From a virus (Duplodnaviria > Caudoviricetes), in the IMG/VR virus record IMGVR_UViG_3300020577_011550, positions 13,792-77,791 of that record: a stretch of 64,000 nucleotides of DNA, one strand, 5' to 3'. The position numbers and the translations under genes were made by a program. This document shows, in pieces, positions 3,147 through 18,183 of this stretch; the stretch's first letter is position 1; each line of letters starts with the position of its first letter. Under the pieces are notes generated by a model. It made no database searches, had not been told where the DNA came from, and worked only from the letters and a program-made list of their open reading frames with translations.

Positions 3147-3685
3147 GCTTTCAACGCGGCGACGTGGTGCAGCACAACGAACACAAGTGGATCGGCGTGG
3201 TCGAGTCGGTCAATTCACTGCTGGGTGACCTGTTCGGCGAATGGTTGGGCGAGGTCATCTGGTTCGAGGGTGACGACCTCGCCAAACGCAGCGCCCGCGC
3301 GGATCAGATTACCAAGATCGACGGGTACGAGTTTGAGGCAGCATTGGCACTTGGGGATGTTGACCGCCTACGCCAACTCTACACCGACATGAAGCAGCAG
3401 CGCGATCAAGCAATCATGGCGACCGTCCCCGAGCTGCATCGCCGCTATCAACTCACTCTGAAGCTCGGCGCGGATAGTGTCGATGACCTCGACGGTGCGC
3501 TCAACAGCGTTCAATTTGATGTATCGGTGCTGATCGACAAACAGTATCTGAATCGCAGCTACCAAAGCGTCAGCGGTGGCCCAACGCGAGACTGGACGCT
3601 TGACATCGAATTCGACCCGGAAATGACGCATGAACGCCATTTCGAAGAGATCAGAGCCTATCTGGAGAAGAAACGTGGGAATTAA
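3143..3685 (+). CDS. hypothetical protein with SH3/KOW-like N-terminus
   Basis: GDVVQH...GVVESV; shares FEAALxLGD with the next ORF. Confidence 0.6.
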   Translation: MSFQRGDVVQHNEHKWIGVVESVNSLLGDLFGEWLGEVIWFEGDDLAKRSARADQITKIDGYEFEAALALGDVDRLRQLYTDMKQQRDQAIMATVPELHRRYQLTLKLGADSVDDLDGALNSVQFDVSVLIDKQYLNRSYQSVSGGPTRDWTLDIEFDPEMTHERHFEEIRAYLEKKRGN

Positions 3686-5538: not shown

Positions 5539-5771
5539 CTCAGAAGTCCATTCCCATCGCCCGTTTCGCCGCGCTGATGCATGACGCCGAAGCCGCGGTC
5601 AAGGCCAACGACTTGGCGACGCTGGAACGCATCAACGCCGAGATCGAGCAGATCGGCTACCGCGTGATCGTCCGGAACGGCGAAACGCTGGTGCAGCAGC
5701 TATACTTCAATCCGGCGACCGGGCGCTATGAATTCCCGTCGCCCGTGCCAGAACGAAAGGAAACGAACTGA
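5535..5771 (+). CDS. hypothetical protein
   Basis: Overlaps neighbours; typical codon usage. Confidence 0.55.
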   Translation: MTQKSIPIARFAALMHDAEAAVKANDLATLERINAEIEQIGYRVIVRNGETLVQQLYFNPATGRYEFPSPVPERKETN

Positions 5772-6229
5772 TGGACGACCGTGGACAACTGATCGAACTG
5801 ACCGAGCGCCAGCAGCGCATCCTCACCATCATCTGGCATTTGAGCGTGGACGAGCCGCAGACGATTCAACGGTTGGGCGAACACGACGCTTTTTGGAAGG
5901 CGACCGAGGCCGAGCGGGCAGCCGCCGTCGAAGCATTCCGCGCCGATCTTCAGCCGATGGTCGCGCTGCATCTGGTGACCATCGATGCTCAGGAACGCGT
6001 CGCGCTGACGCACATGGGCTTCGGACATGGCTACGCGGTCAGCCTGTGGAGGCAGGGTGTTTCGCCGAAGCTCGCCAAACAATGGAATTGGACGGGTGTG
6101 CCGATCCCGGATCACCCAATGAAGTTCGTCCGCCCCACCGAAGCCGAAAAGCGCATGGTGTGGGACATCCACGACCCCGCCAAAGCGGATGAGGTCAACG
6201 CCTGGTGGAACGAAGAAGACGCGGAATAA
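5771..6229 (+). CDS. winged-helix-like hypothetical protein
   Basis: LQPMVALHLVTIDAQERVALTHMG resembles a wHTH wing; followed by a terminator. Confidence 0.55.
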   Translation: MDDRGQLIELTERQQRILTIIWHLSVDEPQTIQRLGEHDAFWKATEAERAAAVEAFRADLQPMVALHLVTIDAQERVALTHMGFGHGYAVSLWRQGVSPKLAKQWNWTGVPIPDHPMKFVRPTEAEKRMVWDIHDPAKADEVNAWWNEEDAE

Positions 6230-6264
6230 CAAAAACGCCCCTCGATATGAGGGGCGTTTTGTTT
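6230..6264. terminator. bidirectional intrinsic terminator
   Basis: AAAACGCCCCTC-gatat-GAGGGGCGTTTT with U-runs on both strands. Confidence 0.85.
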
Positions 6265-6981
6265 AAAGGGCGGTTTTGTGAAACGGGTCAGTTCCACGAG
6301 CAAAGGGTCGATGACCCACACCTACCGCCGACTCATCGGCATGACCACCCCGGTAGCCCTGCCACTACCGCCACGCAGGTTCGCTAGCCTCTGCGTGTGC
6401 CTCCGTCCTCTGGTGGGTTTGGCGGCCCTCTACGTCCGCCTCAGCTCAAAAGGTTTGCAAATCACGGTGAAGGGGTTGAACCTCCCGGCATCGGTAGATG
6501 ATGAAAACACCGTCAGCCTACTGAACCGTGATGCGGACTCGAAAGGGTGGAAAAAGCACCCCAACACGCGCCGCTGACGTTTCCGCGCTTTCCGTCATTT
6601 TCCTGCTGAAGGTTGCGGCTCCTTCTGTCCTCCGCTCCACGAAACACAAAACCGTTGGGGGACTGGCAATCGTTGGACGGTTACAGCGTCCGCTTACGGG
6701 ACGCCCTGTGTTGCGCTTCGTCGCATCGCTGGACGACCGCCCTGAACCTGCTCGGGCGCGGCTCCCCTATTCACCAGGTGAACGGCGGTGACCCCCTGAA
6801 AGGCTAGTGCAGAGCCGAGTCTTCGTACCCCGGCTGCGGACGTTGCCTTGTGCCACAGTGCGGAGTTGAACCGCATACATCCCTGTTCTTGAACGGGGCG
6901 CTCTACCGGTGAGCCACATGCAGCAGACGGGACACGGTTGCCCATGCCCCTCACATCGAACCTTGATCATGCACTCAACCC
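6232..6981 (-). ncRNA. large (~750 nt) structured ncRNA, GOLLD-like, with embedded tRNA-like domain
   Basis: Bounded by a TTGACA-N18-TATATT promoter and the 6230 terminator; no convincing ORF; many hairpins; cloverleaf near the 5' end. Family assignment is inferred from size, phage context and the embedded tRNA. Confidence 0.6.
6851..6925 (-). tRNA. tRNA-like cloverleaf inside the large ncRNA (atypical, no CCA)
   Basis: D arm GCTC-ACCGGTA-GAGC; T arm TGCGG-TTCAACT-CCGCA; anticodon arm CCCCG-TTCAAGAA-CAGGG with an 8-nt loop and one C-A mismatch; acceptor stem has a bulged U. Confidence 0.55.
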
Positions 6982-6987
6982 GCCTCA

Positions 6988-7017
6988 AATATAGAACAGG
7001 TGGGCTAATTCTGTCAA
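6988..7017 (-). promoter_or_regulatory. sigma70-type promoter for the large ncRNA
   Basis: Minus strand TTGACA (7017-7012), 18-nt spacer, TATATT (6993-6988). Confidence 0.7.
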
Positions 7018-7088
7018 CAATCAGTTTGTTATAACTTTCAAATGTACCCGCCCTGCCCTCCGTATGGGGAATGGTTCACACACGATGC

Positions 7089-8390
7089 GTGGCACTCTAC
7101 AGCGGCTAAAGTCGCGTAGCATTTGAACGACGCTTGCGCTTGCCATTGCCTTTCAGCAATGACAGAGGCGCTACGTTATCGTTCACGGATGTGCCCCATC
7201 CGGCTCGATTTAAAATGTTGATCGCAGCATTGTGGTCTCTATCGAGCGAGAGGCCACAATCACATTCTACCCATCGGATTGATAGGCCGAAGTCATCAAA
7301 CAGTGAACCACAATTCGAGCATGTTTTGGAAGTGTAGGCAGGATCTACAAACGCGATCTCACGTCCGGCACTCGCAGCCTTGTACGTGAGCAATTGCTTG
7401 AAGAAACCCCACCCGGCGTCCAAAATGCTTTTACTGAGGTGTTTATTCCGTGCCATGTTGGTGATGCTTAAGTTCTCAATCGCAATCCGGTCATATCGCC
7501 GTACAAGATCATGACTCAGCTTGTGCATAAAGTCCTGACGCTGATTGGCAACGTGTTCATGCTGGCGCTGCACTTTCAGCAACTTCTTGCGGCGATTTTT
7601 CGACCCACGTTTCGCCCGCGCTAACTGACGCTGCAAACGGCGTAGACGTTTCTGTCCAGATCTATAAAAGCTAGGGTTGGTGGTCTTTTCCCCATCACTG
7701 GTTGTGATCAGTGACGCAATCCCAACATCGATCCCCACCACATGTCCATTTTTAGGGAGCGTTAACGGTTCGACAGTCTCGCAGGTAAAACAAACATACC
7801 ACTTGTCAGCGCGGCGAAGGATACGCAGAGTCTTGATTGTACCTTCTAGCGGGCGATGCCAACGCACGGGGATACGTCCGACGCCAAACAACCTCAAGCG
7901 GCGACCATCCAGCTTTGCCCCCATGCCGTACTGCTTGAACTCAAAACTGTTAAAACGGTTGCGAGACTTGAAGCGTGGATAGCCGGGGTTCTCTCCTGCT
8001 TTGACACGGCGAAAGAACGCCTGAAACGCAAAATCCACCTGTTTAACAACAGCTTGTGCTGTCTGACTAAACATCTGTTGGGCTGGCGGGAAAGTTAAAC
8101 GATAGTGTTTGGCAAGCTGCTCTAAGTCCGAAAGCGTGACCGTGCGTTTTTCTAGCTTGTAGGCGTATTTTCGTTCCGCTAGCGCCATGTTGTACAGGTT
8201 GCGGGCGCAATCTAAAACACGCAGTAAGTGTTTCTCCTGCGCCTTGCTTGGGTACAAGCGGTATTTAAAAACCTTGATATGAGTGCTAGAATTCGCCATG
8301 CTCTGACAGTCCTATTGTCGGAGAGCCAGTGGGGATTGCCGTCCCGTGACTGGCATTTTTTATTTTAGCACAAATGTTTGATTGTGCAAC
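7089..8390 (-). mobile_element. IS200/IS605-family tnpB-only element (left end approximate)
   Basis: After the tnpB stop comes a hairpin and ...GTAGAGTGCCAC, resembling IS605-type right ends; a leader hairpin GCCAGT...ACTGGC and extended -10 TGcTAAAAT lie upstream; no tnpA adjacent. Confidence 0.65.
7106..8299 (-). CDS. tnpB: RNA-guided endonuclease TnpB
   Basis: N-terminal FKYRLYP HTH; RuvC-I GIDVG, RuvC-II AIENL, Zn finger TSKTCSNCG...CDCG, RuvC-III DRDHNAAINI. Confidence 0.95.
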   Translation of the reverse strand: MANSSTHIKVFKYRLYPSKAQEKHLLRVLDCARNLYNMALAERKYAYKLEKRTVTLSDLEQLAKHYRLTFPPAQQMFSQTAQAVVKQVDFAFQAFFRRVKAGENPGYPRFKSRNRFNSFEFKQYGMGAKLDGRRLRLFGVGRIPVRWHRPLEGTIKTLRILRRADKWYVCFTCETVEPLTLPKNGHVVGIDVGIASLITTSDGEKTTNPSFYRSGQKRLRRLQRQLARAKRGSKNRRKKLLKVQRQHEHVANQRQDFMHKLSHDLVRRYDRIAIENLSITNMARNKHLSKSILDAGWGFFKQLLTYKAASAGREIAFVDPAYTSKTCSNCGSLFDDFGLSIRWVECDCGLSLDRDHNAAINILNRAGWGTSVNDNVAPLSLLKGNGKRKRRSNATRL

Positions 8391-8476
8391 CCTTAATCCC
8401 CTACCCCACCCTTTTCTCAAAATTCATGCGCGTGCTTTTGACAACCCTTATAGGCGACAACCTAAAGCTTTCTTAC

Positions 8477-8505
8477 TTGCTATACCATATGGTTTATGGT
8501 ATAGT
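8477..8505 (+). promoter_or_regulatory. promoter with embedded palindromic operator (copy 1)
   Basis: TTGCTA-N17-TATAGT containing TATACCATA-tggtt-TATGGTATA. Confidence 0.8.
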
Positions 8506-8540: not shown

Positions 8541-9023
8541 ATGAGCACGAAAGCACAGCGTTTACTCCCCCACCTGATCGCCCACCTGAACGTTTGGAAC
8601 GAGCGCGCGTTCACCGTGTCACAGTTGTACGACGACCTGCTGCGCACGATTGACGATCCCAACTTCGACGTGCTGGAAGGTGTCAGCGAAGCCATCATCC
8701 GCGACGCCGCCAAGCTGCTGCCGGAAGGCTGCGTGAAGGTTCTGCCGAATCGCCGCCTTGTTCTCCAAGCCCGTGCCTTTGCCAAGCCTGAGGAACTTGT
8801 CAAAGTCCTGCGCGCCATCGAACGCGAACGGTTTCCGGAGACCGCCGATCTGAATCTCGGTCTGTTCGTCGACAAACTGATCGAAGACCTGCAATTCCGG
8901 CTGGTGTTGGGTCGTCCGTGGTACGTCCACCAATCGCTGGATTGGGCGAAGGCGACCGGGCTGTTTGAAGTGACGCCCACGTTCTACGGCATGATGCTGC
9001 GTTGGACGCGAGGTGCAGCGTGA
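8541..9023 (+). CDS. hypothetical protein (first gene of DNA-metabolism operon)
   Basis: Strong SD GAAAGGA...GAGG; 160 aa. Confidence 0.7.
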   Translation: MSTKAQRLLPHLIAHLNVWNERAFTVSQLYDDLLRTIDDPNFDVLEGVSEAIIRDAAKLLPEGCVKVLPNRRLVLQARAFAKPEELVKVLRAIERERFPETADLNLGLFVDKLIEDLQFRLVLGRPWYVHQSLDWAKATGLFEVTPTFYGMMLRWTRGAA

Positions 9024-18076: not shown

Positions 18077-18183
18077 CGCGCACCTCCGCGATTTGTCACC
18101 TATGAAGAGATGGCAGTCAGGACGGTAGGTGTTCCGTCTTTTCGGTGATCAGCCTAGACTGCCAATAGAATTATACCATGTGA

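Follow-up and report, generated by a model that had tools for sequence, protein, structure and literature searches.

A gene-free stretch of a phage genome was found to carry what is predicted, from its own sequence and those of its relatives, to be a genuine conserved unit for a folded non-coding RNA of ~750 nt. The window analysed here (64,000 nucleotides) comes from an IMG/VR phage record of 77.8 kb, and the RNA unit fills an 874-nt gap in it between a plus-strand gene (5771-6229) and a minus-strand tnpB gene (7106-8299). The locus is predicted to be under selection and structured, and it matches no catalogued RNA family. Its transcript looks like a string of autonomous cassettes and not like one giant fold. 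Many gene-free phage stretches are usually ignored, while this one appears to hold a structured RNA locus under selection, unrecognised by any database, in which non-decoding tRNA-shaped units are embedded with other conserved RNA domains that seem to move between phages as cassettes.

Setting, boundaries and relatives of the unit

The RNA locus lies just upstream of replication genes (encoding a DUF559 protein, a UvrD-type helicase, and RNase H). Its relatives were reached by protein searches with both flanking genes, which led to metagenomic contigs. A homologous unit on the same strand is present in seven related metagenomic phage contigs, and all the comparisons below are based on about seven distinct sequences. 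In Group A (the window, L011, and L013), the whole unit can be aligned at 74-88% identity. L021, a single 102-kb contig, is collinear with the window and more distant (69-86% identity in blocks), and its gene neighbourhood differs. Group B (L003-L007, L008, L009, and L019) has a gene-free gap of the same size in the same place, and only islands are common to groups A and B. No further relatives were found in phage and plasmid collections by BLAST, in GTDB genomes by pattern and protein searches, or in IMG/VR by protein and DNA pattern, where three pattern matches turned out on checking to be chance coding hits. A pattern search of JGI metagenomes returned only contigs of the known group B type, and a profile search of 1.84 billion proteins added one weak match that has no contig on record.

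As listed in Table 1, a sigma-70-type promoter and a bidirectional intrinsic terminator delimit the unit, and an earlier note made from the letters alone had already pointed out a near-consensus promoter and a bidirectional terminator here. The promoter is identical and on the same strand in L011 and L021 (promoter scan), the block from 7032 to 6965 is almost invariant (alignment A1), and the promoter is kept in lineages that are otherwise 20-30% divergent. In group B, the promoter is TTGACA-N17-TACGTT with a TG upstream of the -10 element; it was missed by the promoter scan and was read by eye, and its -10 (TACGTT) is poor. Judging from the promoter spacing, transcription probably starts near 6981. 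The cloverleaf that the earlier note had placed ~55 nt from the 5′ end begins ~57 nt after this likely start. The opening motif of the leader, GGGTTGAGT(AA)GCATGATC, is present in every relative at a constant distance from the -10 element (alignments A1, A2, and A8, and the group B sequences), and the leader hairpin shows one compensatory pair once L021 joins the alignment (A8). At the other end, the terminator stem is maintained by compensatory changes in L011, L013, L003, and L021, and L021 has a weak T run on the side of the RNA.

Table 1. Predicted features of the RNA unit, in the order of the transcript (window coordinates)
Feature	Position	Strand	Description
Sigma-70-type promoter	6988..7017	-	TTGACA-N18-TATATT; promoter scan, 11/12 matches
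5′ leader	6925..6981	-	opening motif GGGTTGAGT(AA)GCATGATC at 6981-6965, then hairpin 6929-6950
TL1, tRNA-shaped module	6851..6924	-	ARAGORN tRNA-??? at 6850-6924; Rfam tRNA 21.4 bits
M3 and M4 hairpin modules	6736..6850	-	TCACC/GGTGA hairpin; ~34-nt hairpin missing in L013
Core domain	6626..6735	-	common to groups A and B; closed by GUCC/GGAC; ~85% identity between otherwise unalignable groups
Fast-evolving hairpins	6533..6625	-	~38% sequence divergence, stems preserved
TL2, second tRNA-shaped module	6461..6532	-	cloverleaf is the minimum-energy fold in the window and L011
M8, best-conserved module	6344..6440	-	97 nt, 86-91% identity between groups
Variable 3′ stretch	6261..6343	-	~180 nt longer in L011, L013, and L021 (A1, A8)
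Bidirectional intrinsic terminator	6232..6260		12-bp hairpin, T runs on both sides; common to the plus-strand gene 5771-6229

Two side observations concern transcript ends and neighbouring units. In L011, an internal hairpin with a T-rich run (5908-5923, minus strand, corresponding to ~6545-6562 of the window) was flagged as terminator-like and could yield a shorter transcript of ~430 nt. An extra small unit, a CCUCCUCC motif with a strong terminator behind it, is found in group B upstream of the promoter for the RNA (L003 6035-6204 on the minus strand; L008 has it too). The L003 unit has a sub-threshold match to the Rfam suhB/mmgR models (23.5 bits) and may be an anti-Shine-Dalgarno small RNA.

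The neighbouring tnpB gene encodes an RNA-guided nuclease, an IS200/605-type TnpB with a Pfam OrfB_IS605 match (8e-29), a Cas12f1-like TNB domain, and an HTH domain. It belongs to a TnpB-only element (7033 to ~8384) that is missing from every relative and is flanked on one side by the RNA promoter and on the other by the divergent operator/promoter region that serves the plus-strand replication operon. GC falls from 0.58-0.62 to ~0.50 across ~7030-8400, and the homology of the RNA unit to its relatives begins at 7032, which is 73 nt beyond the tnpB stop codon. Since the insert is unique to the window phage, is low in GC, and gives way at 7032 to sequence shared with the relatives, the TnpB element is a recent arrival unrelated to the RNA. 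The omega RNA of a TnpB is encoded in or beside the 3′ end of its tnpB gene and moves together with the transposable element. That the present RNA is such an omega RNA, or another part of the element, was ruled out, because the relatives carry the RNA unit and its promoter without tnpB. If the usual rule holds, the omega RNA of this TnpB would take its guide from the bases just past the right end of the element (7032 downwards, ATAACAAACTGATTGTTGAC). On the far side, a palindromic operator-like sequence, TATACCATATGG..TATGGTATA, is found at ~8481-8503 before the gene 8541-9023, and it is conserved in L021, L022, and L023 and partly in L011.

Does the gap encode a protein? Its open reading frames are all short and arginine-rich, and many open frames are expected at 60% GC. 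The mismatches between the window and L011 are distributed over the codon phases as 50/45/41 (p=0.64), in contrast to 41/11/6 in the neighbouring gene (p=9e-9), and the indels between the two gaps are 1, 2, 5, 12, and 34 nt in length. In a comparison of open frames across the relatives, no common ORF was found. Thus, protein-coding small ORFs were ruled out by the substitution phase, the indel lengths, and the lack of a shared frame. The earlier note had likewise seen no credible ORF, and the conserved coding signal that it had raised as a counter-argument was absent by both the phase statistics and the comparison of frames. A GC-by-phase plot hinted at two plus-strand frames (6278-6577 and 6613-6807), neither of which is conserved. 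A tmRNA was also rejected, as ARAGORN detected none and there was no Rfam tmRNA match at E<=10.

Local structure and the exchange of modules

The window sequence alone folds only weakly better than shuffled sequences (z = -1.8 for the minus strand and -1.1 for the plus strand), and the case for structure thus rests on the relatives. RNAalifold applied to the three group A sequences produced 201 pairs, 18 of which have compensatory changes, versus 8.7±2.3 (maximum 13) in 40 column shuffles that kept the conservation pattern; the consensus energy had a z-score of -3.5 against the column shuffles. The G-U pairs point to one strand over the other, and so does the folding energy (-216 kcal/mol, z = -3.5 for the minus strand versus -181 kcal/mol, z = -2.05 for the plus strand). 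When L021 was added, the number of compensatory pairs rose to 36. Covariation is understood here as counts of compensatory pairs against column shuffles or slid controls, with about seven distinct sequences. The compensatory changes and the near-invariant islands together point to purifying selection on structure.

The covariation among homologs that the earlier note had asked for was thus observed, all of it local. All 18 compensatory pairs of the three-sequence alignment sit in helices spanning fewer than 120 columns. The long-range helices predicted from the same alignment (A3) have zero compensatory changes and several broken cells, and the predicted long-range set was entirely different after the addition of L021 (A8). 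Two candidate long-range contacts were also rejected. A pairing of 6946-6959 with the terminator arm (6242-6255) is not clearly kept in the relatives, and a loop pairing between M3 and M8 (CUAGCCU with AGGCUAG) is lost in L021.

TL1 has an acceptor stem of 7 bp with one bulged U. Its D and T arms and its elbow nucleotides are as usually seen in tRNAs, and CCA is not encoded. Its cloverleaf is 98.5% paired and has five compensatory pairs versus 0-1 in slid controls (three distinct sequences). The Rfam tRNA model (RF00005, cut-off 29 bits) scores below the cut-off on the window copy and reaches 29.3 bits on the L011 copy, both matches being partial (model positions 7-64). The L011 copy also has a mascRNA match of 17.1 bits, below the cut-off of 42.5. 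ARAGORN returned tRNA-??? for TL1 in each lineage scanned, with an abnormal anticodon loop in the window copy. The anticodon arm can be drawn as 6 bp with a 6-nt loop or as 7 bp with a tetraloop, and it is kept as a helix whose loop is UUCAAGAA, UCACAGGA, or CAAUCA across three lineages. TL1 is clearly derived from a tRNA gene. Since its loop is variable between lineages, TL1 cannot be a conserved decoder. A decoding tRNA with a four-base anticodon was ruled out, as both the length and the sequence of the loop vary between close relatives.

In TL2, a 7-bp acceptor stem is combined with a small D-like hairpin, a long arm resembling an anticodon arm, and a T arm whose loop reads UUCRAYY. The second T-loop that the earlier note had reported near 6480 is the sequence GGTTCAACCCC at 6472-6482. 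The D-like loop always retains GG, and the acceptor and T stems are 100% paired, with four compensatory pairs versus 0 in slid controls (four distinct sequences). In L011 and L003, TL2 gave weak matches to tRNA-Sec (16.6-17.7 bits). The acceptor stem, the T arm, and the elbow nucleotides (GG and UUCRA) are preserved in both TL1 and TL2, while the anticodon arm is free in sequence and loop length. Since a 7-nt anticodon loop is absent from both TL1 and TL2, they cannot decode. In L013, a third cloverleaf (TL3, ~3290-3380, minus strand) was found as an insertion of ~86 nt right after M8, and both ends of this insertion coincide almost exactly with the acceptor stem of TL3. The boundaries of this insertion suggest that the tRNA-like units are gained as discrete cassettes.

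The hairpins named in the earlier note are all present: GGCGTCC/GGACGCT with a GUAA tetraloop at 6686-6704, CACGCAG/CTGCGTG at 6372-6397, and GGGTC/GACCC at ~6306-6320, the last of which falls in the 3′ part that is unconserved in the relatives. The first is the GNRA-capped hairpin of the core, whose tetraloop reads GUAA in group A, the group B version being GCAA; the core also contains an AACCGU/ACGGUU stem. Between groups A and B, the core has three compensatory pairs, one of them in the closing helix. In L021, the inside of the core is replaced and the TCACC/GGTGA hairpin is duplicated. The fast-evolving hairpins have compensatory pairs at A3 columns 378:392, 379:391, 406-408:427-429, 434:469, and 447:457.

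M8 consists of a hairpin followed by a junction that is closed by CCACC/GGUGG and bears two hairpins. It has five compensatory pairs, and four of these are in hairpin 3, where they make up four of its seven pairs. The last hairpin has a 12-nt loop with an invariant palindrome, GCUAGC (6383-6388), and no complement of the M8 loop was found elsewhere in the window. A covariance model of M8 (R1, whose E-values are rough) detected six loci and a cut copy in L020, and none in L003 or L006. The core and M8, each of ~100 nt, are compact and testable targets for structure probing.

How are these modules arranged in the relatives? In group B, TL2 comes directly after the leader and before the core, whereas in group A it comes after the core. 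L008 and L009 are without TL2 and the core and have M8 inserted after another cloverleaf-like element, and L008 is without both TL1 and TL2. L003 and L006 have TL2 and the core and lack M8. The core has a closing helix of its own, and so does M8. The only parts that are universal among the relatives are the promoter, the 5′ motif, and the terminator. The gain, loss, and reordering of modules between relatives are hard to square with one giant fold and fit a string of autonomous units.

A proposed processing model and alternative readings

The following model may be proposed. Host RNA polymerase would start at the promoter (7017-6988, minus strand), transcribe ~750 nt, and stop at the 6260-6232 hairpin. 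The transcript would comprise, in this order, the leader, TL1, several hairpins, the closed core of ~110 nt, the fast-evolving hairpins, TL2, and M8. Host RNase P on the 5′ side and RNase Z or RNase E on the 3′ side would recognise TL1 and TL2 and cut the precursor, and the cutting would give several small stable RNAs with expected lengths of ~57, 74, 318, 72, and 230 nt. The tRNA-shaped products could occupy host tRNA-binding proteins, including the defence nucleases that cut tRNAs. I give roughly an even chance to this reading, in which the locus is a non-coding RNA operon of the phage and host enzymes of tRNA processing cut its transcript at the tRNA-like units; the cutting step is what I infer.

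RNase P needs no more of its substrate than an acceptor stem stacked on a T arm, and both RNase P and the 3′ tRNA-processing enzymes recognise such a stack with an intact elbow. The bulge in the TL1 acceptor stem and the absence of CCA from TL1 and TL2 may weaken the cleavage by RNase P. The processing model leaves the universally conserved 5′ motif unexplained, and conserved local hairpins are equally expected from a single large RNA with a variable periphery.

A further extension of the processing model is tentative and rather improbable. M8 could pair with itself via the invariant GCUAGC loop to form an RNA-only dimer or a higher assembly, and the non-decoding tRNA-shaped units could serve both as cutting marks and as joints for the gain, loss, and exchange of cassettes between phages. 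The locus would then represent an uncatalogued class of phage "RNA cassette operons".

Among the alternatives to the operon reading, the one that survives best, though it is unlikely, is a single large structured RNA of a new "ornate" class. The whole 750 nt would form one scaffold with embedded tRNA-like domains, and it might multimerise as GOLLD and ROOL do. The size, the phage origin, the promoter and terminator of its own, the dense conserved hairpins, the GNRA tetraloop, and the T-loops are all in line with this, and the palindromic M8 loop could form a loop-loop dimer. In GOLLD RNAs, a variable 5′ part is followed by a linker, which sometimes contains a tRNA, and then by a conserved 3′ part, and the order of variable region, TL2, and M8 loosely parallels that layout (PMC12286853). 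However, a phage record, a length of ~750 nt, and embedded tRNA-like units are general traits of the GOLLD type and are not specific to GOLLD.

The searches with models of large RNAs speak against a member of a known family. The GOLLD covariance model (RF02032, gathering cut-off 150 bits), which represents the 3′ domain conserved in all GOLLD RNAs, was searched against the entire record of 77.8 kb and had no match at E<=10, and the earlier suggestion of a GOLLD relative was therefore abandoned. The ROOL model (RF03087, cut-off 99.1 bits) had no match either, but the control genomes gave none with it; ROOL was also unlisted in the full Rfam scans of the window region. In the RNA region, Rfam at gathering thresholds gave no match, and at E<=10 the only results for the window region were the sub-threshold tRNA match on TL1 and terminator-driven noise. 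A permissive cmscan of the region in the window, L011, and L003 detected no large-RNA family. Elsewhere in the window, an Rfam int-alpA RNA was found above the gathering score (18097-18164, minus strand, 46.9 bits), and this is the only catalogued RNA in the window.

The comparison of relatives is also unfavourable to one large scaffold. There is no universal structured core (TL2 and the core are missing from L008, and M8 is missing from L003), the module order varies between the groups, the long-range helices are without compensatory support, and the length of the RNA ranges from ~390 to ~940 nt. The earlier note had offered a new ornate RNA class as its second option. What holds of it is an orphan, non-coding, structured, and conserved RNA outside the catalogued families; what is not supported is the single giant fold, since only local helices covary and the modules are reordered.

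A further alternative, somewhat less probable than the large scaffold, is that the main function is that of a tRNA decoy. The look-alikes would soak up defence nucleases that target tRNAs or other tRNA-binding host factors, and the other modules would be spacers or stabilisers. Selection retains the tRNA body (elbow, acceptor stem, and T arm) while the anticodon arm varies, as would suit a decoy, and many bacterial defences cut tRNAs, to which phages respond with tRNAs of their own (PMC10264068, PMC11555353). If the look-alikes are decoys, the locus has a bearing on current work on tRNA-targeting antiphage defences. However, anticodon nucleases usually read the anticodon loop, which is missing from these RNAs, and the decoy reading is weakened by the facts that M8 and the core, rather than the look-alikes, are the best-conserved parts and that L008 is without both look-alikes.

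It is very improbable that the locus is a decaying tRNA gene array, a functionless relic, or an element acting as DNA, for instance a replication origin. In favour of such readings, TL1 is tRNA-derived and its L011 copy reaches the Rfam tRNA cut-off, the locus is next to the replication genes, and the region diverges faster than the neighbouring gene (20% versus 12.6% between the window and L011). Against them stand the signs of purifying selection on structure, the conserved promoter, and the preference of G-U pairs and folding energy for one strand, and neither iteron-type repeats nor an AT-rich stretch was found at the locus (GC 0.58-0.62).

Comparison with known RNAs

GOLLD and ROOL are large non-coding RNAs that occur in phages and prophages and have a link to tRNAs, and the present unit resembles them in these respects (PMC12286853). 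It differs from them in having no model match, no universal core, no fixed module order, and no supported long-range architecture. Moreover, the conserved 3′ module here, M8, is 97 nt in length, in contrast to 416 model positions in GOLLD.

The RNAs RNAC and RNAD of phage T4 are matured by the host tRNA-processing machinery. The tRNA region of T4 yields two small, stable RNAs of unknown role, and the likeness lies in small phage RNAs being transcribed together with tRNA-type RNAs (PMC3014915). In contrast to the present unit, which has no decoding tRNA according to ARAGORN, the T4 pair lies among genuine decoding tRNAs. The non-tRNA modules of the two systems are probably unrelated in sequence. 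As for canonical tRNAs (RF00005), TL1 shares with them the tRNA-type D arm, T arm, and elbow and the 7-bp acceptor stem, while it differs in an unconserved anticodon loop of 8/4 or 6 nt, the bulged U, and the unencoded CCA.

The mascRNA of MALAT1, the tRNA-miRNA RNAs of murid herpesvirus 68, and the immunity RNAs c4 of phage P1 and CI of phage P4, which are processed by RNase P, are cases in which tRNA-like elements act as processing signals. These come from eukaryotic or unrelated phage systems. The likeness is that RNase P or RNase Z is recruited by a non-decoding tRNA-shaped element lying within a longer transcript, as is predicted for the present unit. If its look-alikes are processing signals, the unit would give bacterial viruses a counterpart to the tRNA-punctuated transcripts of mitochondria, herpesviruses, and MALAT1.
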